From: Candidatus Rokuibacteriota bacterium
GTDB lineage: Bacteria > Methylomirabilota > Methylomirabilia > Rokubacteriales > CSP1-6
NCBI GenBank assembly: GCA_016184305.1
Contig: JACPCX010000090.1
Location: forward strand, 1 to 11,014
Length of the DNA stretch: 11,014 nucleotides
Direction: 5' to 3'
A program made the position numbers and the translations under genes. The notes below the pieces were generated by a model, which did not search any database, was not told the origin of the DNA, and was given only the letters and a program-made list of their open reading frames with translations. Position 1 is the first letter of the stretch; every line of letters begins with the position of its first letter. Below, in pieces: positions 1-11,014 of this stretch.

Positions 1-380
1 ACGGTCTCCCCCTCCACACGCTCCATGAGGATGCCGGGCTTGAGCCCGTGGGGCGCGCCCTCGGGGATGCACCAGTAGGCCCGGGGCGCGGGGACGCCGG
101 CCGCGTGCATCGCCGCGATCACGCGCAGCTCGTCGTCGCGGGGGACGCGCGAGTAGAGGATCTCGGCGCCGCAGTCCGCGAGGAGGACGAGGCGGTGGAG
201 TCCCGCCCAGACGCCTCCCGCGATCTCCACGTCGAGCGCCCAGGCTTCCCGCATGGTGCCGCCGGGAAGCCGCGAGAGTGTGCGGATCGTCGCGGCATGC
301 CCGGTTTCGCCGGCGATGAAGACCTCGAGTCCCGCGTGGAGCGACTCCACCGGCGTGGCGGCGGACGCCTCCGAGCTCAC
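1..380 (-). CDS. Phosphotransferase (APH / ACAD10-11 kinase-domain / LvaA-like) family protein, N-terminal part; truncated by the window edge
   Basis: Not in the ORF track. Manual translation from GTG at 380 gives VSSEASAATPVESLHAGLEVFIAGETGHAATIRTLSRLPGGTMREAWALDVEIAGG...RDDELRVIAAMHAAGVPAPRAYWCIPEGAPHGLKPGILMERVEGET. The Gly-rich loop (LPGGTMREAW), E-x-RV...AGVPAP and LMERVEG fit the APH-family N-lobe. It lies directly downstream of an ACAD10/11-type dehydrogenase. Confidence 0.8.
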   Translation of the reverse strand, partial: MSSEASAATPVESLHAGLEVFIAGETGHAATIRTLSRLPGGTMREAWALDVEIAGGVWAGLHRLVLLADCGAEILYSRVPRDDELRVIAAMHAAGVPAPRAYWCIPEGAPHGLKPGILMERVEGET

Positions 381-411
381 CGCGGCGCCCGCGTCGCCGC
401 GCGGCTCCTGC

Positions 412-1608
412 TCACGGCCAACGGCGGATCTCGTGCTCGGCGATCTTGGCCTTGTGGACCTCGTCCGCGCCGTCGCCCAGTCGCAGGATGCGGGCGTACC
501 GCCACATGGCCGCCAGCGGGACGTCGTCGGTGACGCCCAGCGCCCCGTGGATCTGGATGGCGCGGTCCACCACGCGGCAGGCGGTCTGGGCGCAGATCAC
601 CTTGGCCATGGAGATGTGCGGCCACGCCTCCTTCTTCCCCATGGTGTCCATGGCCCAGGAGGCCTGGAGCATCATGAGGCGCGCGGCATTCACCTCGATC
701 CTGGAGGTGGCGATCATGTCCTGGACCATCTGCTTCTCGGCCAGCGCCCCGCCCACCACCATGCGCGTCCGCGCCCGGCGGGCCATCATCTCCACCGCGC
801 GATCGGCCATGCCCACGGCCCGCATGCAGTGGTGGATGCGGCCGGGCCCGAGCCGCGCCTGCGCCACGGCGAAGCCCTCGCCCTCCCCGCCGAGCAAGGC
901 GCTCCGTGGGACCCGCACCCCCTCGAAGGCGACCTCGCACTCGCCGGGGCCGCTCACGTGGCCGAATACCGGCATCGCCCGCACCACCGTGAGCCCCGGG
1001 TTGTCCATCGGCACCACGAGGAGGCTCACCCGCTTGTGGCGGGAGGCCGCCGGATCGGTCACGGCCATGACGAGGAGCACGCGCGCGTGCATGGCGCCCG
1101 TGGTGAACCACTTCCGCCCGCTGATGACGTAGTCGCCTCCGTCCCGGACGGCGCGCGTCTTCAGCTGGGTGGGGTCTGAGCCCGGCGTCATGGGCTCGGT
1201 CATGGAGAAGCCGCTGCGGATCTTGCCCTCGAGCAGCGGCTCGAGCCACTGCGCCTTCTGCTCGGGGTTGCCGTACTGCGCCAGGATCTCCATGTTGCCG
1301 GTGTCCGGCGCCGAGCAGTTGAAGACCTCGGAGGCCCAGAGGACACGCCCCATGATGGCCGCCAGCGGCGCGTACTCGAGGTTGCTGAGCCCGGGGCCAT
1401 GGGCGCGATCGGGCAGGAAGAGGTTCCAGAGCCCGGCGCCCCGGGCCACCGCTTTCAGCTCCTCGAGGATCGCGGGGCGGTGGTGGCGGTCACCCGAGCC
1501 CTCGATGGCCTCGTAGTAGGCGCGCTCGCTCGGGGAGACCCAGCGCTCCATGAACTCGGTGATCTGCTTCGAGAGGGTCGTGGCTCTCGCAGTGGGCGTC
1601 AGGTCCAT
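412..1608 (-). CDS. Acyl-CoA dehydrogenase, ACAD10/ACAD11/LvaC-type
   Basis: Motifs GLWNLFLP, FNCSAPDTGNME, FSMTEP, GRKWF, AQARLGPGRIHHCMR, AIQIHGALG and RLGDGADEVH. The ATG at 1608 is preferred over the GTG at 1623 because an AAGGAG RBS (1620-1615) precedes it. Confidence 0.93.
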   Translation of the reverse strand: MDLTPTARATTLSKQITEFMERWVSPSERAYYEAIEGSGDRHHRPAILEELKAVARGAGLWNLFLPDRAHGPGLSNLEYAPLAAIMGRVLWASEVFNCSAPDTGNMEILAQYGNPEQKAQWLEPLLEGKIRSGFSMTEPMTPGSDPTQLKTRAVRDGGDYVISGRKWFTTGAMHARVLLVMAVTDPAASRHKRVSLLVVPMDNPGLTVVRAMPVFGHVSGPGECEVAFEGVRVPRSALLGGEGEGFAVAQARLGPGRIHHCMRAVGMADRAVEMMARRARTRMVVGGALAEKQMVQDMIATSRIEVNAARLMMLQASWAMDTMGKKEAWPHISMAKVICAQTACRVVDRAIQIHGALGVTDDVPLAAMWRYARILRLGDGADEVHKAKIAEHEIRRWP

Positions 1609-1627
1609 GGATTGCTCCTTCACCTGG

Positions 1628-1663
1628 GGCGGGCACCCGGGCTGTCGCCCGCCCGTGCCCGCC
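1628..1663. other. GC-rich intergenic stem-loop between the two acyl-CoA dehydrogenase genes
   Basis: GGCGGGCAC (1628-1636) pairs with GTGCCCGCC (1655-1663), enclosing an inner CGGGC-TGTC-GCCCG stem. No U-tract follows in the operon (minus) direction. Confidence 0.5.
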
Positions 1664-1742
1664 GGTTTCTCGCGCTGCTCGATTTTCTGCAGCCGATCTC
1701 AGCCGCTGTCTTGGCTCGGTCTCCCTGCTCGCTCCCGCTCCC

Positions 1743-2885
1743 TCAGAGAAGCCCGAGGGACCGGGCGATGACGCTCAGCTGGATCTCGTTGGTGCCTTCC
1801 CCGATCCAGGCCTCGGGGGCGTCGCGGTAGAGACGCGCCACCTTCATCTCCTCCATGTAGCCGGCGCCGCCGTGGAGCAGGAGGGCCTCGCCGGTGACGC
1901 GCACCGCGGTCTCGCTTGCCAGTAACTTGGCCATGGAGGCCTCGCGGATGCACTCACGCCCCCCCATGTGAAGCCGGGCCGCGCGGTAGATCATCAGCCG
2001 GACGGCGTCGACGCGCGCCGCCTGGTCGGCGATCTTGAAGGCCACCGCCTGGAAGCTGCCGATGCTCTTGCCGAAGGCCTGCCGCTCTCCCGCGTAGCGC
2101 AGGATCAGCTCGTGGGCCTCCTGGGCCAGCCCGAGGCCGCGGTTGGCCACGAGGATGCGCCCCTCGGTGAGCGTCGCCTTGAGCTGGCCGAGCCCCTGCC
2201 CCACCTGGCCGAGCAGGCGGCGGCCGGGGACGCGCACGTCTTCGAGACTCACGAAGGCCGTCGAGGACGAGTGGTTGCCGACCTTGACGAGGTCGCGCGC
2301 GCTCACGCCGGGATCGTCGGTCTCGACGAGGAAGAGCGAGAGCGCATCCCCCGACCGTCCCTCGCCCGTGCGGGCGGCCACCACCATGAAGTCGGCGATC
2401 GCGCCGTTGGTGATGTAGAGCTTGCTCCCGTTGAGCACCCAGTCGCCGCCGCTGCGGCGCGCCGTCGTCTTGATCCCGCGGATATCGCTGCCGGCGTCCG
2501 GCTCGGTGAGACCGAAGGCGCCGATCCGTTCGCCCCGGAGCGCGGGCAGGAGGAACTCGCCCTGCTGCTCCTCCGTCCCGATGCGAAAGACGGGGCCGGC
2601 AGCCAGGTGCTGATGGGCGAAGACGCCGGCGGAGACGCCGGCCGAGGCGCGCGTCAATTCCTCGTAGAAGATGCACCCGATGAGGAGGTCGCCCCCACTG
2701 CCGCCCACCGCCTCGGGGAAATTCACCGCGAGGAAGCCGCCGTCGCGGAGAACCGGGTAGACCTCTCGCGGGAAGCGGTGCTCGCGCTCCCCCGCCTCGG
2801 CCAGCGGGGCGATCTTCGCCGTCACGAACCGCCTGAACTGGTCCCTGAACTCCCGGTGCTCCCGCTCCAGCCCGAAGTCTTCCAT
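1743..2885 (-). CDS. Acyl-CoA dehydrogenase, canonical (short/branched-chain-like)
   Basis: 380 aa. Motifs GAFGLTEPDAGSD, LNGSKLYITNG, ERQAFGKSIGSFQAV, ASMAK, HGGAGY and IGEGTNEIQ (canonical catalytic Glu). Confidence 0.95.
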   Translation of the reverse strand: MEDFGLEREHREFRDQFRRFVTAKIAPLAEAGEREHRFPREVYPVLRDGGFLAVNFPEAVGGSGGDLLIGCIFYEELTRASAGVSAGVFAHQHLAAGPVFRIGTEEQQGEFLLPALRGERIGAFGLTEPDAGSDIRGIKTTARRSGGDWVLNGSKLYITNGAIADFMVVAARTGEGRSGDALSLFLVETDDPGVSARDLVKVGNHSSSTAFVSLEDVRVPGRRLLGQVGQGLGQLKATLTEGRILVANRGLGLAQEAHELILRYAGERQAFGKSIGSFQAVAFKIADQAARVDAVRLMIYRAARLHMGGRECIREASMAKLLASETAVRVTGEALLLHGGAGYMEEMKVARLYRDAPEAWIGEGTNEIQLSVIARSLGLL

Positions 2886-2895
2886 GCCGTCGTTC

Positions 2896-3657
2896 CTACC
2901 AGGTGACGGTCTCGCCGCCGTCGATGTAGACGGTCTGGCCCGTCATGAAGTCCGAGGCCGGCGAGGCCAGGTACACCGCCAGCGGCCCCATCTCGTCGGG
3001 CTCGGCCAGGCGCCGCGCCGGGATCTTGGAGAGGATGAGGTCGCGGATGCGCGGCTCCGCGCGGGAGAAGTCGGTGGCGAGATAGCCCGGCGCCAGGCAG
3101 TTGACCTGGATATTGTGGCGCGCCCACTCGACGGCCAGGCAGCGGGTGAGGGCATCCACACCGGCCTTGCTCACGCAGTAGGCGGTGTGGCGCGACACGC
3201 CGAGGCGGCCCCACATGGAGCCGATATTGACGATCTTCCCCCGCCCCCGCGCGATCATCGAGGGGGCGACGGCGCGGCAGCAGCGGAACATGGACGTGAG
3301 GTTGGTGGAGAGCATCCCCTCCCACTCGTCGTCGGTCATCTCGACTGTCTTCTTCTCGATGACAATCCCCGCGTTGTTCACGAGGATGTCGATGGGCCCG
3401 AGCGCCTGCGTCACGGCGGCCACGGCCGTGACGATCTGCTCGCCGCGCGTGACGTCGAGGGGAAACGCGCGCGCCTGCCCGCCTGCCTCGCGGACGCGCG
3501 CCGCCGTGTCCTCCACCTGGTCCCCCGAGCGCGCGGCGCATGCCACCGTCGCGCCGGCCGCGCCGAAGGCCAGCGCGAGGGCCCGGCCGAGCCCGCGGCT
3601 CGCCCCGGTCACCAGCGCCACGCGCCCCGCCAGCGACAGCGCCTCCCCAGAGGTCAC
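2896..3657 (-). CDS. Short-chain dehydrogenase/reductase (SDR; FabG/gluconate-5-dehydrogenase-like, possibly LvaD-like oxoacyl-CoA reductase)
   Basis: Rossmann motif TGASRGLG, NNAG, catalytic YCVSK (YxxxK), VN.LAPG and C-terminal TGQTVYIDGG. The GTG start at 3657, after GGAGACGAAGGC, is more plausible than 3702. Confidence 0.93.
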   Translation of the reverse strand: MTSGEALSLAGRVALVTGASRGLGRALALAFGAAGATVACAARSGDQVEDTAARVREAGGQARAFPLDVTRGEQIVTAVAAVTQALGPIDILVNNAGIVIEKKTVEMTDDEWEGMLSTNLTSMFRCCRAVAPSMIARGRGKIVNIGSMWGRLGVSRHTAYCVSKAGVDALTRCLAVEWARHNIQVNCLAPGYLATDFSRAEPRIRDLILSKIPARRLAEPDEMGPLAVYLASPASDFMTGQTVYIDGGETVTW

Positions 3658-3705
3658 GCCTTCGTCTCCGTCATGTGGATGTGCCTCCCGCGCCCAACAC
3701 AATTG

Positions 3706-3719
3706 ACTGACTGGTTAGT
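3706..3719. promoter_or_regulatory. Putative TetR operator 1 (ACTGAC-TG-GTTAGT)
   Basis: Near-perfect 14-bp palindrome in the AT-richer divergent intergenic region, upstream of the SDR arm. It matches the site at 3828-3841. Confidence 0.6.
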
Positions 3720-3771
3720 GACAATCCATGGGGCGTCTGCCTCATTTCCCTGGGCCCCTCCGGCGAGCGCC

Positions 3772-3801
3772 TTGATGTTAGCGCATTCGACCCTCTACAA
3801 T
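3772..3801 (+). promoter_or_regulatory. Putative sigma70 promoter for the tetR-mutase-ligase arm
   Basis: TTGATG (3772-3777), an 18-nt spacer, then TACAAT (3796-3801). An alternative pair, TTGCGC (3817-3822) and TAGGTT (3841-3846), brackets operator 2. Confidence 0.4.
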
Positions 3802-3827
3802 GAAGCCTCGACTCGATTGCGCGGGTT

Positions 3828-3841
3828 ACTGAACGATTAGT
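3828..3841. promoter_or_regulatory. Putative TetR operator 2 (ACTGAA-CG-ATTAGT)
   Basis: Imperfect palindrome, extendable to TACT...AGTA (3827-3842), about 20 nt upstream of the tetR start. It shares ACTGA....TTAGT with operator 1. Confidence 0.6.
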
Positions 3842-3862
3842 AGGTTCGCCGATGAGGGCGCC

Positions 3863-4537
3863 ATGCGCAAGCGGAAGACTGCGGCGAGGGCCGGGGCTCA
3901 CCTCACGCGCGAGCGGATCCTCGCGGTGAGCGCCCGCGTGTTCAACCGCCGCGGCTACCACGGCACCACGCTCGACGACATCGCCCGGGCCCTCTCCGTC
4001 ACCAAGGCGGCGCTCTACTACCACGTCAAGAACAAGGAGGAGCTGCTCTTCCAGTGCCACCAGCTCGCGCTGGACATCGGCATGGAGGGCTTCCACCGCG
4101 CCTTGGCCCAGCCGGCGCCGCCCGACGAGCAGCTCCGCATGGCGCTGAGCCATTACATCGAGGGCATGGCCGACCAGCTCACGGGCACGGTGGTCCTGCT
4201 CGAGCAGGGGGCGCTGTCGCCACGCCATCACCGGCAGATCGTCCGCGGGCGGGACGAGTACGAGCAGGCGCTCCGCACGCTGATCGCCGGCGGCATCGCG
4301 GCCGGCGTCTTCGTGCCCTGCGATCCCAAGCTCGTGGGCTTCGCCATCCTGGGCGCGGTACACTGGATTCCGAAGTGGTACAATCCGGCCGGCCCGAGCC
4401 GGGCGCCGGAGATCGCCGAGGCCTTCGCCGCCTATCTCGTCCGCGGCCTGACGAAGCAGCCGTCGCCCGATCTGCCCGCGCCCCGGCGGACCGCCGCGGC
4501 GGCGGAGCGTGGAGTCCCCCATGACACCGCCGCCTGA
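3863..4537 (+). CDS. TetR/AcrR family transcriptional regulator (KstR2/PaaR-like, probably acyl-CoA responsive)
   Basis: N-terminal HTH RERILAVSARVFNRRGYHGTTLDDIARALSVTKAALYYHVKNKEELL. The C-terminal GIAAGVF...ILGAVHWIPKWYNPAG is typical of the KstR2-like C-domain. Confidence 0.93.
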   Translation: MRKRKTAARAGAHLTRERILAVSARVFNRRGYHGTTLDDIARALSVTKAALYYHVKNKEELLFQCHQLALDIGMEGFHRALAQPAPPDEQLRMALSHYIEGMADQLTGTVVLLEQGALSPRHHRQIVRGRDEYEQALRTLIAGGIAAGVFVPCDPKLVGFAILGAVHWIPKWYNPAGPSRAPEIAEAFAAYLVRGLTKQPSPDLPAPRRTAAAAERGVPHDTAA

Positions 4538-6212
4538 CGCCCCGCGCCCCCCCGACCTCCCCCGCAAGGGCCATCTCGACGCCTACTTCGAGAAGCCCGC
4601 GCGGCTCAGGACCTGGTCGGGCCTCGAGGTCAAGCCCGTGTATCGGCCCGAGGACGTCACCGGCGCCTACCAGGAGCGCCTGGGCGACCCCGGGCACTTC
4701 CCCTACGCGCGCGGCATCCACGCCGACATGTACCGGGGCAAGTACTGGACGCGGCGCGAGGTGTGCGGGTACGGCGGCCCGGAGGAGACGAACCAGCGGA
4801 TGAAGTTCCTGCTGGCCCAGGGCGCCTCGGGGCTCAACGTCATCTTCGACATCCCGACCATGACGGGGATGGACGCCGATCACCCGATGGTGGAGGAAGA
4901 GGTGGGCGTCCAGGGCACCTCGCTCTCCACGGTGGAGGACATGGAGGCCCTCATGGAGGGCCTGCCGCTGGACGGCATCAGCATGTCCATCGTCGTGACC
5001 TCCCATGCGGCGCCCGTGGTCCTCGCGATGTACCTGGCGGTGGCCCGCCGGCGGGGGCTCCCCCTCGACCGGCTGCGCGGCACGATCCAGAACGATCCGC
5101 TCCACCACCGCTTCTGCGGCTATCCGCCCGCCTACTCGCCGCTCAACCTGGGGCTCAAGACGGCGGTGGACTGCCTCGAGTTCTGCGCCCGGCAGATGCC
5201 GCACTGGTACCCGATCAACGTCAACGCCTACGACCTGCGCGAGGAGGGGCTGGGGGCGGCGGAGGAGATCGGCTTCTCCTTCGCCATGGCCCGCACCTAC
5301 ATCGACCGCGCCCTCGAGCGCGGGCTCGCCATCGACGAACTGGCTCCGCGGATGGTCTTCTACTGCTCGGCCCACATCGACCTCCTCGAGGAGGTGGCGA
5401 AGTTCCGCGCCATGCGGCGCATGTGGGCCCGGATGCTCCGCGACGAGTACGGCGCCCGCGATCCGCGCTCGTGGCAGTTCAGGTTCGGCGTCCACACGGC
5501 GGGCGTCTCCCTCGTCCCGCAGCAGCCGCTCAACAATATCGTCCGCGTCGCCTACGAGGCGCTCGCCGCCGTCCTGGGCGGCGCCCAGTCGCTGCACTGC
5601 TGCTCCTACGACGAGCCCATCTCGCTCCCCACCGAGCAGGCCCACCAGATCGCGATCCGCACCCAGCAGATCCTGGCCTACGAGACGGGCGCGGGGAACA
5701 CCGCCGACCCGCTGGGCGGCTCCTACTTCATCGAGGCGCTCACCGACCGCCTCGAGACGGAGGCGCGCGCCATCCTCTCGCGCATCGCCGAGCAGGGCGG
5801 GATGTTCCGGGCCATCGAGACCGGCTGGGTGGACCAGGAGCTCGAGAACGCCGCCTACCGCTACCAGCAGGAGGTGGAGCGCCGCGAGCGCCTCATCGTG
5901 GGATCCAACGCCTTCATCGTCCCGCCCGAGCAGGACCACGAGGTGCCCGCCCACCCGCGGCCGTCGGCCACGCAGGTCCGCGCGCGCCTGGACCAGCTGA
6001 AGCGCTTCCGCGATCTCCGGGACGCGGGCGCCGTCATGGCCGGGCTCCGGCGTTTGCGGGACGAGGCGGGGCAAGGCGAGCGCCACAACCTCATCCCCTG
6101 CCTCATGGACGTCGTCGGCGCCGGCGCGACGCTCGGCGAGGCGGTGGGGGTGATGCGCGAGGCCTATGGACATGCCTATGACCCGGCCGGCCAGATCCGC
6201 TCCGTCCTCTGA
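4521..6212 (+). CDS. Adenosylcobalamin-dependent acyl-CoA mutase, large (substrate-binding) subunit, methylmalonyl-CoA mutase family
   Basis: SGLEVKPVY, PGHFPYARGIHADMYRG, FDIPT..G.DAD, GTIQND, EEVAKFRAMRRMWA, TAGVSL..QQPLNNIVR, LGGAQSLH, DPLGGSYFIE and ATLGE. The ATG at 4521 follows GGAG (4511-4514). It has no C-terminal B12 domain, so it is the split type. Confidence 0.93.
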   Translation: MTPPPDAPRPPDLPRKGHLDAYFEKPARLRTWSGLEVKPVYRPEDVTGAYQERLGDPGHFPYARGIHADMYRGKYWTRREVCGYGGPEETNQRMKFLLAQGASGLNVIFDIPTMTGMDADHPMVEEEVGVQGTSLSTVEDMEALMEGLPLDGISMSIVVTSHAAPVVLAMYLAVARRRGLPLDRLRGTIQNDPLHHRFCGYPPAYSPLNLGLKTAVDCLEFCARQMPHWYPINVNAYDLREEGLGAAEEIGFSFAMARTYIDRALERGLAIDELAPRMVFYCSAHIDLLEEVAKFRAMRRMWARMLRDEYGARDPRSWQFRFGVHTAGVSLVPQQPLNNIVRVAYEALAAVLGGAQSLHCCSYDEPISLPTEQAHQIAIRTQQILAYETGAGNTADPLGGSYFIEALTDRLETEARAILSRIAEQGGMFRAIETGWVDQELENAAYRYQQEVERRERLIVGSNAFIVPPEQDHEVPAHPRPSATQVRARLDQLKRFRDLRDAGAVMAGLRRLRDEAGQGERHNLIPCLMDVVGAGATLGEAVGVMREAYGHAYDPAGQIRSVL

Positions 6213-6216
6213 GCCC

Positions 6217-6624
6217 GTGGCCGCCATCAAGGTGGTGCTCGGCAAGGTCAGCATGGACGGCCACGACCGGGGCGTGCGCGTGCTGGCGCGGCTGCTGCGG
6301 GATGCGGGAATGGAAGTCGTGTACCTCGGCAAGTTCCTCCCGCACGAGGCGCTGATCGAGGCCGCCATCCAGGAGAACGCCCAGGTGGTGGGCCTGTCGT
6401 TCCTGTCCGGGGAGCATCTGCCCCACACCCGCCGCTTCGCCGCAGCGCTCCGGAGCCGTGGCCTCACGGATGTGCTCTTGCTCGTGGGCGGGGTCATCCC
6501 GCGCCAGGATATCCCGCACCTCCTCGAGGGCGGCGCCGGCGGCGTCTTCGTGACGGGCACGCCGGTGGAGCAGGTGGTGGGCTTCATCCGCGACTGGGTG
6601 GCGGCGAAGGAGGCGAGCGGATGA
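6217..6624 (+). CDS. Cobalamin-binding small subunit of the acyl-CoA mutase
   Basis: DxHxxG motif (MDGHDRG), plus GLSFLSG, VGGVIP and FVTGTP. The start is uncertain: GTG 6217 just after the large-subunit stop, or an upstream ATG at 6166, 6172 or 6178. Confidence 0.92.
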   Translation: MAAIKVVLGKVSMDGHDRGVRVLARLLRDAGMEVVYLGKFLPHEALIEAAIQENAQVVGLSFLSGEHLPHTRRFAAALRSRGLTDVLLLVGGVIPRQDIPHLLEGGAGGVFVTGTPVEQVVGFIRDWVAAKEASG

Positions 6625-8114
6625 CGAGCCTGGGAGGATTCGCGCGGCAGCAGGCCCGCCGCTTCGGCGACACGCCGCTGTTCTTCTCCGGCGATGAGGT
6701 CGTCAGTTACCGCGGCTATGACGAGCGCACCGACCGCCTGGCCGGCGGTCTCGCCCGGCTGGGCCTGCGCCGGGGAGACCGGATGGCCGTGCTCCTCCCC
6801 AATGGGCTCCCCATCCTCGAGGCCTACATGGGGGCGGCGAAGGTCGGGGCGGCCTCGGTGCCGCTCAATCCCATGTTCACGCCGCGGGAGATCGAGTACG
6901 TCGTCAACAACTCGCGGGCGAAGGTCATGATGGCCTCCCCGCGCGATGCGGAGCGGGTGCAGGCGATTCGCGACCGGCTGCCGTCCCTCGCCCACGTGGT
7001 GGTGGCGGGCGAGGCCGTGGCCGGCACGCTCCCCTACTCTCAGGTGGCGAGCGCGGCGCCCCTCGAGGTCACCGCCCCCGTGGACGGCGACGACGTGGCG
7101 ATGATCGCCTACACCTCGGGCACCACGGGCCACCCCAAAGGCGCCATGCTCACCCACGCCGGGCTCCTCGACAACGCCGCCGCCGTGGTCGAGGCGGTGG
7201 GCTTCCGTGACGCCGACCGCTCGCTCTGCATCCTGCCCCTCTTCCACGTGTTCGCCATCGCGTTCGACTATCTCCAGATGATGACGGTGGGAGCCTCCAG
7301 CGTCATCGTCGAGCGCTTCGACGCGGGGGGGGCGCTCCGCCTCATCGAGCGCCACCGCGCCACGGTCCTGGTCGGCGTGCCCACCATGTTCATCTACATC
7401 CTCCGCCACCCCGACCGGCAGCGACACGATCTCTCCTCGCTGCGCATCGGCGACACGGGCGGGGGTCCGGTGCCCACGGCGCTCAAGACCGAGTACGAGC
7501 GCGACATCGGCATGGTGCTGCTCGAGAGCTACGGCCTCACCGAGGCCTCACCCGTGGTGACGATCGAGCGCCCCGGGCTCCCGCGCCGCGAGGGCGCCTG
7601 CGGGCTCACGCTGCCGGGGATGGAGACGAAGGTGGTGGACGCCACGGGGCAGGAGGTCCCGCCCGGGGAGCTGGGCGAGATGCTGGTGCGCGGCCCCAAC
7701 GTGATGAAGGGCTACTTCGAGATGGCCGAGGCCACGACCCGGACCATCGTGGACGGGTGGCTCCACACCGGCGACCTCATGCGCAAGAACGCCGACGGCC
7801 ACGTCTACATGGTGGACCGCCTCAAGCACATGATCATCTGTGGCGGCTACAACATCTACCCCAAGGAGATCGAGAACGTGCTCCACGACCACCCGGCGGT
7901 GCTCGAGTGCGCGGTGGTCGGCGTCCCGGACGAGGACAAGGGCGAGATCCCCAAGGCCTGCATCGTGCTCCGCGAGGGCGCGCACGCCACCGAGGCGGAG
8001 ATCAAGCAGTTCTGCCGCGAGTCCCTCGCCGCCTACAAGGTCCCGCGCGTCGTGAAGTTCCTGGCGAGCCTGCCCAAGACCGCCACCGGGAAGATCCGCA
8101 AGGGCGAGCTGTAA
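6621..8114 (+). CDS. Acyl-CoA synthetase / fatty-acid-CoA ligase (AMP-binding, class I adenylate-forming)
   Basis: YTSGTTGHPKG, LPLFH, SYGLTE, GPNVMKGY, GWLHTGD, DRLK..I..GG.NIYP.EIE and LPKTATGKI. ATGA overlap with the upstream stop and a GGAGG RBS. Confidence 0.95.
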   Translation: MTSLGGFARQQARRFGDTPLFFSGDEVVSYRGYDERTDRLAGGLARLGLRRGDRMAVLLPNGLPILEAYMGAAKVGAASVPLNPMFTPREIEYVVNNSRAKVMMASPRDAERVQAIRDRLPSLAHVVVAGEAVAGTLPYSQVASAAPLEVTAPVDGDDVAMIAYTSGTTGHPKGAMLTHAGLLDNAAAVVEAVGFRDADRSLCILPLFHVFAIAFDYLQMMTVGASSVIVERFDAGGALRLIERHRATVLVGVPTMFIYILRHPDRQRHDLSSLRIGDTGGGPVPTALKTEYERDIGMVLLESYGLTEASPVVTIERPGLPRREGACGLTLPGMETKVVDATGQEVPPGELGEMLVRGPNVMKGYFEMAEATTRTIVDGWLHTGDLMRKNADGHVYMVDRLKHMIICGGYNIYPKEIENVLHDHPAVLECAVVGVPDEDKGEIPKACIVLREGAHATEAEIKQFCRESLAAYKVPRVVKFLASLPKTATGKIRKGEL

Positions 8115-8244
8115 CGCATCTGCCACGACCCCCCCTGAGCCCTGTCTGAAACTTTGGACATTCCCGCGGCGCTGCCGCCGTGGGTAGGCTCGCTCCACGC
8201 GGAATCGCGATCGGCGATCCGCGATCACGTGGAGGGAGCCAGCC

Positions 8245-8481
8245 ATGACGGGCCGCATCGAGTTCTACGACGAGCCCACGGCCTGGGGCGTGATCCTCGG
8301 GGAGGACGGCCGCGTCTATGTCGTCCGCGGCACCCGCGCCCCCGGGTCCGCGCCGCGGGTGGGCGACACGGTGATCTTCGAGCCGCGCGACACGACCACC
8401 GGCCTCCGGGCTGACGCGGTGCGCCGGGTGGCGCCCGCACAGCAGAGCCCGGAGCGCTCGGCTTTCAGGCGGCCGGCGTGA
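8245..8481 (+). CDS. Small cold-shock-domain (OB-fold)-like protein with degenerate RNP motifs
   Basis: 78 aa with a strong RBS (GGAGGGAG, 8231-8238). MTGRIEFYDEPTAWGVILGEDGRVYVV...RVGDTVIFE....GLRADAVR follows the CspA beta-strand pattern (TG.VKWF...KGFGFI...DG..VFVH...EG..V.FE....G..A.NV). Confidence 0.65.
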   Translation: MTGRIEFYDEPTAWGVILGEDGRVYVVRGTRAPGSAPRVGDTVIFEPRDTTTGLRADAVRRVAPAQQSPERSAFRRPA

Positions 8482-8561
8482 GGGCGTTCACCAGGTCGCG
8501 GACGGCGTCCCGGGCCTGCGCGATGGCGCGCAGCCGTCGCGCCGGCTCTACGAGATCGTAT

Positions 8562-8574
8562 TATCAATCTGTTA
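8562..8574 (+). promoter_or_regulatory. IHF-consensus site
   Basis: TATCAATCTGTTA matches WATCAANNNNTTR exactly and sits at the edge of the AT-rich tract. Confidence 0.45.
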
Positions 8575-8611
8575 CGTGATAGACAATCGCGCATCCGTGA
8601 AGAGGCGAGCG

Positions 8612-8620
8612 TGCTACCAT
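8612..8620 (+). promoter_or_regulatory. Putative extended -10 promoter element for the two-gene cassette
   Basis: TG-C-TACCAT (TGnTAnnnT) overlapping the first 18-bp repeat. No clear -35 element. Confidence 0.35.
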
Positions 8621-8689
8621 GTCCGTGATAGTAAACATGTACATGGTAATAATCATGATCATGATATTTCTCATGTCCATGATGGAGAG
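8618..8689. repeat. Four tandem imperfect 18-bp repeats, each starting with a CATGnnCRTG palindrome-like box
   Basis: 8618 CATGTCCGTGATAGTAAA; 8636 CATGTACATGGTAATAAT; 8654 CATGATCATGATATTTCT; 8672 CATGTCCATGATGGAGAG. The period is exactly 18 nt. Confidence 0.85.
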
Positions 8690-8700
8690 GATGCAAGCTC

Positions 8701-9921
8701 ATGGCGCGCATGCAGCCTAAGCCCTCCCTCCATCAGGAGCTGCTCGAGCAGGCGGTCGGCGACGCGTTCCGTCACGCCAGGTGGAAGGTCGTTTCGCGGC
8801 CACGCATCGAGGAGTTGCGCCCCGACCTGCTCGTCCGCCGCGGTGATCGCCAGTACGCCGTGGCAATCAAGAGCTCCTCGGCGCCACGCCGCGATCGCCT
8901 GGTCCCGCTTCTCGCCCAGGCCATTCTGGAGGCGAGAGCGGGCGCCTCGAACGCCGATGTTTCGCCGCGTCCTCAGCCCCTTGCGATTGTTGGCGCCCGA
9001 GGACTGTCGGGCTCGCTTGTCGGCGCCCTTCGATCTTTTGCTGCCCGAGTCGCTCCGGACGTGTCCATTGGCATCATCGACCTCGACGGATCCCGGCACT
9101 TCCTCGGGCCAGACCTGGAGGAACTGAACTCGTCCGCTGTCCGCCTACCAAGCGGCATCTGGCTCCCGCCTCTTGCTCCGCAGCTCCATTTGTTCTCGGA
9201 CCTGAACCGGTGGATGCTGAAGGTTGTACTCGCCCCGGCAATCCCCGAGCCCCTGCTGAACGCTCCGCGCGAGAGACTGGCGAATGTGTCGGAACTGGCA
9301 CGGGTCGCGGGCGTTTCCCCGATGAGCGCCTTCCGCTGCGTCAGGCTGCTGAAGGACGCGGGGTTCATGGATGAGCCATCGCCCATGTTGCGGCTTGCAC
9401 GGGTCGAGGCCCTCCTGGACCGCTGGCGAGCCGAAAGCCTCAAGCCAGTCCCCGAACTGCCGATGCACTGGATCATCCCTGGTAACCGGAGCAGTCAGCT
9501 CTCGGAGGCCGTTCTTGCGTACTCGATGAACTGGGAATCAGCCCGGTCACCCGTTCGGAGCCGGCAGGCAGGGCGCCCGCTGCCCCGTGTTTGCCTCGGG
9601 CTCTTCGCTGCAGCTGACGCGCTCGGATTCGGTTTCGTCCAGGGTGTCGCCCCTCACCTCTATCTCGAGCGGCCCGATCCGCTTGCCCTGGAGCGGCTTG
9701 GCCTCGCCCCCGCCCGTCCAGGTCAACGCATTGACGTGTTCATCCGTATCCCGGCCTTTCGGGAATCGATATTTCGTGCCGCAGTTCAGCGGGATGGAAT
9801 CCCAGTCTGTGACGTCATTCAGGTGTGGCTGGATGTCGCTGATCATCCATCACGGGGCGCGAGTCAGGCCAAGGAGCTCCGACGGGTGCTGGACGCCGCG
9901 TGGAAGCGGGCACCAGGATGA
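8701..9921 (+). CDS. AbiEi-like (type IV toxin-antitoxin antitoxin-like) HTH protein with an N-terminal degenerate PD-(D/E)XK-like segment
   Basis: 406 aa. RPDLLVRRGDRQYAVAIK (restriction-fold-like), HTH NVSELARVAGVSPMSAFRCVRLLKDAGFM, LLDRW, and a C-terminal GIPVCDVIQVWLDVADHPSRGASQA resembling AbiEi_2-type C-termini. RBS GGAGAGG at 8684-8690. Translationally coupled to a nucleotidyltransferase. Confidence 0.65.
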   Translation: MARMQPKPSLHQELLEQAVGDAFRHARWKVVSRPRIEELRPDLLVRRGDRQYAVAIKSSSAPRRDRLVPLLAQAILEARAGASNADVSPRPQPLAIVGARGLSGSLVGALRSFAARVAPDVSIGIIDLDGSRHFLGPDLEELNSSAVRLPSGIWLPPLAPQLHLFSDLNRWMLKVVLAPAIPEPLLNAPRERLANVSELARVAGVSPMSAFRCVRLLKDAGFMDEPSPMLRLARVEALLDRWRAESLKPVPELPMHWIIPGNRSSQLSEAVLAYSMNWESARSPVRSRQAGRPLPRVCLGLFAAADALGFGFVQGVAPHLYLERPDPLALERLGLAPARPGQRIDVFIRIPAFRESIFRAAVQRDGIPVCDVIQVWLDVADHPSRGASQAKELRRVLDAAWKRAPG

Positions 9922-10727
9922 AGGCCGCCGACGAGTCTGCCGCGTTCGCGCGCCTGGTGCTGGCGCTGCGGCCCTACCTGGGCGACCTGGTGCTCATAGG
10001 GGGCTGGGCACAGCGGCTCTTCCGGCTGCACCCGTGGGCGCAGCCGGCCGAATTCCCGCCCCTTCTCACCCAGGACGTCGATGTGGCCATTCCGAAGAAG
10101 CTGAGTCCCCGAGCGGAAGGTCTCCGCACGCTCCTGCGTACGGCCGGATTTACGGAGCGCTTCTTTGGCGAGGACCACCCGCCTGTCACGCACTATCAGC
10201 TCGGCGACGATGCGACCTTCTACGTCGAGTTCCTCACGCCCCTTGTCGGGCCCCCCAAGACGAGTACCAGCAGCGTTGCCGGTGTCGCGGTCCAGCATCT
10301 TCGCCATCTCGCCATCCTGATGATCGAGCCATGGTCGATTTCGCTCAGCCCCCCAGCGTATCCACTCGGCTCGACGCCGATTGAAGTTCGAATCGCGAAC
10401 GCGACAGGGTACCTTGCCCAGAAGCTATTGGTCCTGGACAGGCGCAATCCGGATGACCGCGCGAAGGACATTCTCTATATTCACGACACGCTGCTTACGT
10501 TTGGCCGCTCCTTGGCCGACCTCGAGCGGCTTTGGATTGACCGCGTCGCGCCGGGAATTCACCGGAACGCCGCTCGTATGCTGCGAGGTTCTCCGGGCGC
10601 CCTCTTCTCGCAGACCACCGACCCGGCACGAGCGGCCAGCCGGGTCGCTACGGCCGCCGGGCGGCCGGTCACTCCAGAGGAGATCGCCGCGGTGTGCCGT
10701 ACCGGACTGGCGAGAGTGTTCACTTAG
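9918..10727 (+). CDS. Nucleotidyltransferase-fold protein (AbiEii / GSU2403-like; putative type IV TA toxin)
   Basis: LVLIGGWA (hGG motif), LLTQDVDVAI (TxDxD), VEFLTP and YLAQKL...R....RAKDILYI (K...R..KD). The ATG at 9918 overlaps the upstream TGA (ATGA). Confidence 0.8.
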   Translation: MKAADESAAFARLVLALRPYLGDLVLIGGWAQRLFRLHPWAQPAEFPPLLTQDVDVAIPKKLSPRAEGLRTLLRTAGFTERFFGEDHPPVTHYQLGDDATFYVEFLTPLVGPPKTSTSSVAGVAVQHLRHLAILMIEPWSISLSPPAYPLGSTPIEVRIANATGYLAQKLLVLDRRNPDDRAKDILYIHDTLLTFGRSLADLERLWIDRVAPGIHRNAARMLRGSPGALFSQTTDPARAASRVATAAGRPVTPEEIAAVCRTGLARVFT

Positions 10728-10850
10728 GGCCTGTCACGGAATACGCAACGTGGCTGATGAGCCGCTTGCCGCGCCAGGTCTGGGTGATGAACGAGAAGAG
10801 CGTGTACTCGATCGTGTTCCACTTGCCGGTGCCCGGCGGAAAACTGGACA
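10727..10850 (-). mobile_element. ISAzo13-family insertion-sequence remnant: transposase fragment plus probable terminal inverted repeat
   Basis: The minus frame from 10842 reads FPPGTGKWNTIEYTLFSFITQTWRGKRLISH, matching the ISAzo13 transposase signature HFPPGTSKWNKIEHRLFSFI..NWRG.PL.S. It is followed directly by TATTCCGTGACAGGCCC-TAAG, which resembles ISAzo13-type ends as I recall them. The rest of the transposase is absent. Confidence 0.8.
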
Positions 10851-10949
10851 ATCCATTCGACCACCGGGCCATCCACGGGGCCCCCGTGTAGCATGGCAGC
10901 ATCAGCGGGCGACAGGGCCCCCCGGCGCAGGGTACGATGCGCCGCAATC

Positions 10950-11014
10950 GTGAGCGCCCTCGCCGCCCCTCACCCCGTCCGGCAGCTCGCCCTCCTCGCG
11001 CTGGCCGAGCTCCT
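10950..11014 (+). CDS. Probable MFS transporter, N-terminal start; truncated by the window edge
   Basis: GTG at 10950 gives VSALAAPHPVRQLALLALAEL(L), resembling the first TM helix start of an MFS subfamily (R.LALLALAELL...W). A -10-like TACGAT lies at 10933-10938. Only 21 codons are visible. Confidence 0.45.
   Translation, partial: MSALAAPHPVRQLALLALAEL

Follow-up and report, generated by a model that had tools for sequence, protein, structure and literature searches.

The window analysed here, a stretch of 11,014 bases that makes up the entire contig C195 of a groundwater Rokubacteria genome assembly (3.2 Mb in 239 contigs, 88.8% complete), carries a divergent locus encoding, among other proteins, a split B12-dependent acyl-CoA mutase, a TetR-family repressor, and an APH-family kinase adjoining an acyl-CoA dehydrogenase-fold enzyme of the ACAD10/11 type. 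The nearest relatives of the window carry the label Rokubacteria/Methylomirabilia. Plausibly, though by no means assuredly, the locus is a single catabolic regulon under TetR control that handles a small organic acid taken up from outside. Two separable modules would have merged in it within this lineage, and the mutase probably supplies the 4-phosphoacyl-CoA module, represented by the kinase and the ACAD11-type enzyme, or has substrates in common with it. The kinase/ACAD11 set is of an already known kind, the mutase belongs to a clade without a characterised member, and a search of the literature returned no report of a B12 mutase and a kinase/ACAD11 set joined in one regulon.

The mutase and its active-site residues

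The mutase large subunit covers positions 1-512 of the 512 positions of PF01642, and the small subunit matches PF02310 (E 8.5e-25). The pair thus combines the full-length barrel and the B12-binding domain with a DxHxxG motif expected of an adenosylcobalamin-dependent acyl-CoA mutase. Since this motif reads DGHDRG in the small subunit and the genome also encodes MeaB (contig C76), the predicted enzyme looks functional. Its best solved relative is the 2-hydroxyisobutyryl-CoA mutase (HCM) of PDB entry 4r3u (409 bits, E 2e-121), followed by human methylmalonyl-CoA mutase (MCM; 320 bits); the alignment to IcmF (206 bits) is limited to residues 179-551.

To compare active sites, we relied on residues that distinguish the substrate classes: Tyr89, Arg207 and His244 of MCM (Propionibacterium shermanii numbering), Ile90, Asp117 and Gln208 of HCM, whose numbering fits 4r3u at a constant offset of 11, and a Phe/Gln pair at the Tyr89 and Arg207 positions of isobutyryl-CoA mutase (ICM). 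In the alignment, the window mutase has Val at the MCM Tyr89/HCM Ile90 position, Ile at the HCM Asp117 position (Ala in MCM, where it has no number of its own), Tyr at the MCM Arg207/HCM Gln208 position and Asp at the MCM His244/HCM His245 position, which is His in both solved enzymes. The signature residues of MCM (Tyr/Arg/His, here Val/Tyr/Asp), HCM (Ile/Asp/Gln, here Val/Ile/Tyr) and ICM (Phe/Gln, here Val/Tyr) are hence all absent, and the SLHTN segment of the solved relatives reads SLHCC. The same mapping applied to a control paralogue recovered YARHTN, the canonical MCM pattern, and is therefore taken to be valid. The scores against NCBIfam models are consistent with the residues: 423 bits against a cut-off of 876 for the MCM model NF006944, and 216 against 1500 for the IcmF equivalog. 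An earlier note on this DNA had named a plain methylmalonyl- or isobutyryl-CoA mutase as the identity that would undo its pathway scheme; the aligned residues rule out both, and 2-hydroxyisobutyryl-CoA mutase with them.

The Asp recurs throughout the mutase homologs of the loci that we fetched, onto each of which the signatures were mapped. The 13 homologs with at least 70% identity read VIYDCC (11) or LIYDCC (2), and all 77 homologs at 48-70% identity have Asp at the His position, so that Asp replaces the catalytic His in 90/90 members. Among these 77, the CC pair is intact in 71 and reads SC in 6, its last residue always being Cys, while the Arg207 position is occupied by F, Y, W, M, G, I or H. 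The window mutase belongs to this clade, which has no characterised member and is known from genomes of uncultured organisms only, and it combines Asp at the catalytic His position with a neutral pocket (Val, Ile, Tyr).

All 80 genome-collection loci of the clade come from metagenome-assembled genomes. In the plasmid collection, 423 records matched the mutase query, all below 44% identity, and the ESM Atlas returned only generic mutase clusters; the Atlas record begins at residue 5 of the large subunit, in line with the probable true start at 4521. The literature searched gave no description of an Asp-for-His mutase clade or of a link between such a mutase and lva genes, and a search of PMC11599936 and PMC2847961 for active-site residues gave no result.

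Two further arrangements were seen around more distant members of the clade. Uncultured Desulfobacterales/Deltaproteobacteria carry tandem arrays of two to three mutase large/small pairs (L083:9941-17260, and L031, L035, L041-L045, L052, L054 and L057-L060), with MeaB in the L083 array and diverse paralogue signatures (LCQHTN, IVQVTS, VVKASD and others); the residues suggest several further uncharacterised mutase specificities. In L028 (11681-13201) and L029 (11684-13210), an open reading frame (ORF) of 506-508 aa lies between the large- and small-subunit genes, with the same spacing in L053 and L063, and the interposed ORF of L029 matches the flavin amine-oxidase family.

The kinase/ACAD11 arm and its recurrent adjacency to the mutase

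The ACAD11-type enzyme of the window matches the mycobacterial homolog 4hr3 (E 6e-115) and mouse ACAD11 (8v3u, E 1e-106) far better than the best ordinary acyl-CoA dehydrogenase (ACAD) in the PDB (E 1.6e-48). Its segment aRlgpgrihHCMR aligns with the region of mouse ACAD11 that contains R626 and the HCMR motif (H634, R637), aRlgpg being paired with grlgpg, and its segment lrlgDGaDEVH with lrlaDGpDEVH, in which the catalytic Asp (D753) replaces the usual Glu. Arg626, the HCMR motif and the catalytic Asp are described as features unique to ACAD10/11 and LvaC in PMC12440821. The enzyme is accordingly predicted to be of the ACAD10/11/LvaC type, eliminating phosphate from a 4-phosphoacyl-CoA to yield a 2-enoyl-CoA.

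The kinase gene starts at 380, 31 nt past the stop of the ACAD11-type gene at 412, and runs off the contig. The encoded fragment alone matches the Pfam APH family weakly (E 0.0019, 18.5 bits, under the 23.2-bit cut-off), and it is assigned to the APH family on the strength of its 84% identity to a full-length APH protein of the near-identical relative L007 (4117-5160), itself a PF01636 match at E 1e-31. Full-length orthologs match PF01636 at E 1e-31 to 4e-33, and that of L004 carries the HGDyrlgN and DWE motifs. Directly 3' of the kinase gene, at a distance of 5-25 nt, a DUF6285 gene is found in 9/9 loci; it lies outside the window and encodes a protein of 144-145 aa in L007, L004 and L151. 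A complex model of the kinase and the DUF6285 protein scored 0.86, against 0.00 for the best of three controls, a mark met by 116 of 157 solved complexes and by 2 of 215 mismatched pairs; the modelling runs share at least 89% of contacts and the partner pLDDT is at least 89. The model supports a predicted binding of the kinase by the DUF6285 protein, a family for which the literature search returned no papers. The predicted pair would parallel LvaA and LvaB, reportedly described by Rand et al. in 2017.

Synteny was analysed from both sides. Starting from the mutase, we inspected 80 genome-collection loci and 22 metagenome loci, and found the kinase, DUF6285 and ACAD11-type genes (at least 40% identity) in three of the 80 (L004, L005 and L007); the metagenome loci L091 and L092 duplicate L007 and L004. 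The L095 and L096 mutases (83% identity) stand in compact TetR-SDR-large subunit-small subunit-ligase operons, the former followed by a LIV-type ABC transporter, and the metagenome locus L098 resembles L006, whose mutase is 82% identical to that of the window and which lacks the kinase/ACAD11 pair. Of eight distant loci that were annotated, most resemble beta-oxidation clusters, containing ACADs, SDRs, enoyl-CoA hydratases, thiolase, CoA-transferase, ligase and electron-transfer flavoprotein, frequently together with additional mutase paralogues; in one, L010, the neighbors are unrelated housekeeping genes. A TetR gene adjoins the mutase in many distant loci, and that of L083 was identified as TetR_C_24.

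Starting from the ACAD11-type gene, 155 of 251 genomes of the phylum presented a match at E 1e-80 or better, a tally that is the only one to include two unpublished genomes. The matches form two groups, a common copy of about 50% identity and a window type of 73-100% identity present in 14 genomes. The mutase adjoins the window-type ACAD11/APH genes in the order seen in the window in four genomes of one genus (G000, G222 [L007], G223 [L004] and G224). It does so in two other orders elsewhere: SDR-SDR-ACAD-carboxyltransferase-large subunit-small subunit-MaoC-ACAD11-unk370-SDR-APH-DUF6285 in G216 (L005), and large subunit-small subunit-ACAD11-APH-DUF6285, in one co-directional string with a 44-nt gap, in G215. 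The remaining eight window-type genomes carry a stand-alone ACAD-SDR-ACAD11-(unk370-SDR)-APH-DUF6285 module, adjoined by LIV-type ABC transporter genes in L153, L157 and L159 and by its own ligase in L153 and L159. The mutase itself is present at 80% identity or more in six of the 251 genomes, with a partial copy in G215 (a wider tally, including one unpublished genome, gives 18). It lies beside the kinase/ACAD11 pair in six of the seven phylum genomes with this mutase subclade, representing three of four genera and three gene orders. The association is recurrent, yet facultative.

Among other ACAD11-type loci, the common copy (for instance in L163-L170) is carried by the majority of genomes in two of the phylum's families and makes up the bulk of the 155 matches; an APH gene at 30-34% identity is often nearby, with no DUF6285 match, and eight common-type loci that we inspected presented neither a mutase nor a DUF6285 match. 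The 370-aa protein, whose gene separates the ACAD11-type gene from that of the kinase-adjacent SDR, belongs to no Pfam or NCBIfam family and is conserved in stand-alone modules (L153:6556-7623, L155:8890-9918) as well as in the mutase-linked L005 (13940-15052). In L005 (7055-7959), the ACAD upstream of the carboxyltransferase is a 206-aa ORF with the C-terminal domain only, suggesting a frameshift or an assembly error.

One regulon or two neighboring modules

Several features of the window point to a link between its two arms. In a tree of 29 SDRs, the window SDR groups (support 99/94) with those of L095, L005 and L026 (Nitrospirae), whose genes immediately precede the mutase gene. The sister group (97/92) of this mutase-associated clade is the SDR found ahead of the kinase in stand-alone modules, and the SDR of the ACAD-SDR-ACAD11 type is far from it. 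The window-type locus has neither SDR type of the stand-alone kinase modules and no second ligase, its only SDR being the mutase-associated one; the kinase arm, if it works at all, would use the SDR and the ligase of the mutase arm. The TetR protein (best PDB match 3vpr, E 3e-33; KstR2, 52.7 bits) is encoded at a 160-bp divergent promoter region holding two 14-bp imperfect palindromes of the pattern ACTGANNGNTTAGT. No other copy of this pattern occurs in the window and two matches were seen in 0 of 200 shuffles, a statistic that is partly circular given that the pattern was derived from the same copies. Both palindromes are invariant in L004 and L007, and the spacer between the TetR and mutase genes of the distant Desulfobacteraceae locus L067 contains one more match. 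The shared operators named in the earlier note correspond to these two conserved, operator-like palindromes flanking the divergent promoters. Both arms are also present in RNA libraries: short contigs with at least 90% likeness were recovered from two metatranscriptome runs of different studies, covering the second ACAD, TetR, mutase and ligase in one (X19) and the kinase/ACAD11 junction, SDR, TetR, mutase and ligase in the other (X20). These contigs indicate presence only, and uncovered parts such as 8465-10672 are uninformative. Eighteen DNA runs from groundwater and soil contain at least half of the sampled words.

In relatives of the window, the minus-strand operon extends beyond the point at which the contig ends. 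In L007, L004 and L151 it continues with DUF6285, a carboxyltransferase and a biotin carboxylase/biotin carboxyl carrier protein subunit with a BT_MCC_alpha domain. Among solved structures, this carboxyltransferase is closest to the beta subunit of 3-methylcrotonyl-CoA carboxylase (MCC) from Pseudomonas aeruginosa (3u9r, 579 bits) and human (553 bits), followed by 9tps, titled propionyl-CoA carboxylase (PCC) beta (532), AccD1 (530) and geranyl-CoA carboxylase (491), with classical PCC beta subunits at 262 bits or less. The genome G001 has a single MCC-type carboxyltransferase, its runner-up match being 37% identical. An MCC-type carboxylase following the kinase arm suggests an enoyl-CoA with a 3-methyl branch, that is, 3-methylcrotonyl-CoA or a homolog, and fits an example in the earlier note that ended at 3-methylcrotonyl-CoA; that the route converges on this compound is our guess. 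Downstream of the MCC alpha gene, G001 presents no hydratase and no HMG-CoA lyase. The genes found there (L114, G001:C175, 2049-4588) encode an ADP-forming acyl-CoA synthetase of 707 aa and a phosphoenolpyruvate (PEP)-mutase-family fragment of 124 aa. The fragment aligns with the PEP-mutase/isocitrate-lyase profile at positions 1-58 only and may be a broken gene.

Under the integrated route that we favor, the ligase would convert the imported acid to an acyl-CoA, and the adenosylcobalamin mutase would displace the thioester group to the neighboring carbon of a substrate that is neutral and not carboxylated. The mutase-associated SDR would interconvert oxo and hydroxy groups, thereby setting the oxidation state at C4, after which the kinase and its DUF6285 partner would phosphorylate the 4-hydroxyacyl-CoA and the ACAD11-type enzyme would eliminate the phosphate to give a 2-enoyl-CoA. 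The short-chain ACAD (SCAD)-type enzyme might admit the non-hydroxylated analogue and, in the genus of the window, the MCC-type carboxylase would handle the 3-methyl-2-enoyl-CoA. The gene identities, the diagnostic residues of the ACAD11-type enzyme, the atypical residues of the mutase, the recurrent adjacency and the conserved palindromes are observations; we infer that the product or substrate of the mutase is the 4-oxo- or 4-hydroxyacyl-CoA of the left arm, in which direction the flux runs, and which acid enters. A more specific form of the proposal, which we regard as rather doubtful, is that the Asp-for-His clade performs an undescribed rearrangement of branched, oxo- or hydroxy-substituted acyl-CoA substrates, for instance of 2-methyl- or 2,2-dimethyl-3-oxo/hydroxyacyl-CoA to 4-oxo/hydroxyacyl-CoA, feeding the kinase/ACAD11 set and an MCC-type carboxylase in Rokubacteria and so unblocking alpha-branched or quaternary-carbon acids for beta-oxidation.

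A number of observations weigh against an integrated route. None of the 76 distant mutase loci (49-62% identity) has the kinase/ACAD11 pair, and four Rokubacteria loci (L006, L095, L096 and L098) have mutase and ligase without it. Linkage is not obligatory: among the 14 genomes that have the window-type ACAD11 gene, eight lack a mutase in the fetched flanks, several of them on short contigs. Four of the six positive genomes come from one genus. The carboxylase raises its own difficulties: the MCC type is found in the operon in one genus only, L005 has a PCC-type carboxyltransferase in its place, and the gene is separated from its predecessor by 18 nt in L007 but by about 290-300 nt in the other two species, L004 and L151. 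The window's own assembly, at its stated completeness, contains no MCC-beta ortholog (best match 38%), nor was the kinase found in it a second time, which is why the end of the window-type operon is known from relatives only. In addition, the kinase (L004 ortholog) resembles the kinase domain of ACAD11 only remotely (35 bits, E 8e-8). The second ACAD, finally, is not isovaleryl-CoA-dehydrogenase-like: its best solved relatives are butyryl-CoA dehydrogenases (7szv, 272 bits), ahead of isovaleryl-CoA dehydrogenase 4o5m (230 bits), and it has a Glu within the segment ...IGEGTNEI... The scheme of the earlier note, in which a B12 mutase supplies 4-hydroxy- or 4-oxoacyl-CoA to the kinase/ACAD11 pair, holds in part. 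Its gene content, its non-plain mutase and the adjacency of the two sets in three of four genera and three gene orders stand; the pair is missing, however, from every distant locus, both modules also occur alone, and the coupling itself is a proposal.

It is possible, if doubtful, that the locus simply places two uncoupled catabolic modules side by side in a gene island for small organic acids, with separate substrates for the mutase-ligase-SDR set and for the kinase/ACAD11 set. Each does occur alone: the kinase modules are accompanied by a LIV-type ABC transporter, to which L153 and L159 add a separate ligase, and the TetR-SDR-mutase-ligase operon stands ahead of an ABC transporter (L095), and the kinase pair is absent from the distant mutase loci. 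Against this, the two sets are joined in three gene orders across three genera, including the co-directional string of G215 with its 44-nt gap, the window-type locus has dispensed with the SDRs and the ligase proper to the kinase module, and palindromes stand at both promoter sides.

Unlikely, in our estimate, is a role for the mutase as an alternative exit, converting a 4-oxoacyl-CoA such as levulinyl-CoA to a 2-methyl-3-oxoacyl-CoA for thiolase cleavage while the kinase/ACAD11 pair handles the 4-hydroxy form. The minimal operons of L095 and L096 would be self-sufficient for this with a housekeeping thiolase, a Tyr in place of the carboxylate-binding Arg might be expected for a ketone analogue of succinyl-CoA, and in the SDR tree the mutase-associated clade and the kinase-adjacent one are sisters; but the MCC-type carboxylase of the window-type operon would be left unexplained, two routes for one substrate in one regulon would be redundant, and no thiolase occurs in any Rokubacteria locus examined. 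That the enzyme is an ordinary methylmalonyl-, isobutyryl- or 2-hydroxyisobutyryl-CoA mutase of routine propionate, valine or butyrate metabolism is very improbable, for although its split architecture is that of ICM and HCM, its best solved relative is HCM and the neighboring ACAD is butyryl-CoA-dehydrogenase-like, the class-defining residues are all absent under a mapping that recovers the MCM signature in the control, and the equivalog scores are far under their cut-offs.

To our knowledge, the substrate classes established for B12-dependent acyl-CoA mutases are few, and every addition has proved useful in pathway engineering. The clade described here is widespread in uncultured bacteria of groundwater, soil and sediment and replaces the catalytic His of the aligned solved MCM and HCM, and its repeated joining with the recently discovered 4-phosphoacyl-CoA route narrows the candidate substrates to a short list. 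Were the coupling true, a radical carbon-skeleton shift and a phosphorylation-driven removal of a hydroxyl group would be combined in a single route for branched acids refractory to beta-oxidation.

Gene inventory and comparison with known systems

ORFs, codon-position G+C (GC3 frame test) and Pfam matches pick out eight genes in the window, and the gene list of the earlier note proved right. None of the proteins searched reached an NCBIfam equivalog, and the closest solved relatives of the ligase (feruloyl-, fatty-acyl- and 4-coumarate-CoA ligases) are uninformative on its substrate.

Features of the 11,014-base window, with strand and the basis of each assignment
Feature	Position	Strand	Basis and remarks
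APH-family kinase (LvaA-like), N-terminal 126 aa only	3..380	-	84% identity to L007 ortholog; contig ends inside gene
Predicted ACAD10/11/LvaC-type acyl-CoA dehydrogenase-fold enzyme, 403 aa (4-phosphoacyl-CoA phosphate eliminase type)	412..1623	-	Structure matches, motifs
Second acyl-CoA dehydrogenase, short-chain (SCAD/butyryl-CoA dehydrogenase-like) type	1743..2885	-	Pfam, PDB matches
SDR oxidoreductase, mutase-associated clade	2896..3702	-	Pfam, tree
Putative operator-like imperfect palindrome 1, ACTGACTGGTTAGT	3706..3719		Conserved; adjoins SDR start
Putative operator-like imperfect palindrome 2, ACTGAACGATTAGT	3828..3841		Conserved; 22 nt upstream of TetR start
TetR-family repressor (TetR_N + TetR_C_24)	3863..4537	+	Pfam
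Acyl-CoA mutase large subunit, Asp-for-His clade	4509..6212	+	PF01642, E 4e-170; true start probably 4521
Cobalamin-binding small subunit, DGHDRG (DxHxxG) motif	6166..6624	+	Pfam, motif
Acyl-CoA ligase (AMP-forming)	6621..8114	+	Start overlaps small-subunit stop by 4 nt

The G+C content is 0.69-0.74 up to about position 8000 and 0.635-0.668 thereafter. Within 8114-11014, an NTP_transf_8 domain at 9900-10727 is the only Pfam match among the ORFs, PADLOC gave zero matches on the ORFs downstream of the ligase, and the genes after the ligase differ in the relatives L004 and L151; this part of the window looks like a strain-variable segment.

The relatives' carboxylase recalls the liu (leucine/isovalerate) pathway, both in the score of its beta subunit against P. 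aeruginosa MCC beta and in the BT_MCC_alpha domain of its alpha subunit. Unlike that pathway, the locus has no isovaleryl-CoA-dehydrogenase ortholog, methylglutaconyl-CoA hydratase or HMG-CoA lyase, and the carboxylase is absent from the window and from its own assembly. With IcmAB, IcmF and pivalyl-CoA mutase (PCM), the window mutase shares a neutral pocket without the carboxylate-binding Arg, and its split architecture matches as well. A catabolic route from pivalate to isovalerate would need the context that is seen here, namely acyl-CoA dehydrogenases and, in the relatives, MCC. The mutase differs from ICM in having Val/Tyr in place of the Phe/Gln pair and Asp in place of His244.

HcmAB of Aquincola tertiaricarbonis (4r3u) has the same split large/small layout and a small aliphatic residue at the Tyr89 position (Ile in HCM, Val in the window mutase), from which the window enzyme departs at the hydroxyl-binding Asp117 (Ile), Gln208 (Tyr), His245 (Asp) and the SLHTN segment (SLHCC). 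Mammalian ACAD10 and ACAD11, as presented in PMC12440821 and PMC11342911, correspond to the ACAD11-type enzyme in their ACAD domain (E 1e-106), R626, HCMR and catalytic Asp; the window kinase is in contrast a separate gene, as in bacteria, with remote similarity to the mammalian kinase domain.

The closest parallel in gene content is the levulinate operon lvaABCDE of Pseudomonas putida, as described in the same two papers. Like that operon, the window locus encodes an APH-type kinase and a predicted phosphate-eliminating enzyme of the ACAD10/11 type. Its SDR and CoA ligase are candidate counterparts of LvaD, the SDR that reduces the 4-oxo group, and of the ligase LvaE, and in the relatives a small protein beside the kinase (DUF6285), modelled to bind it, is a candidate counterpart of LvaB. 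It differs from lvaABCDE in having a TetR regulator, an extra SCAD-type ACAD and a B12 mutase in the same putative regulon, in the MCC-type carboxylase encoded downstream in the relatives of the window, and in an SDR that comes from the mutase-associated clade.

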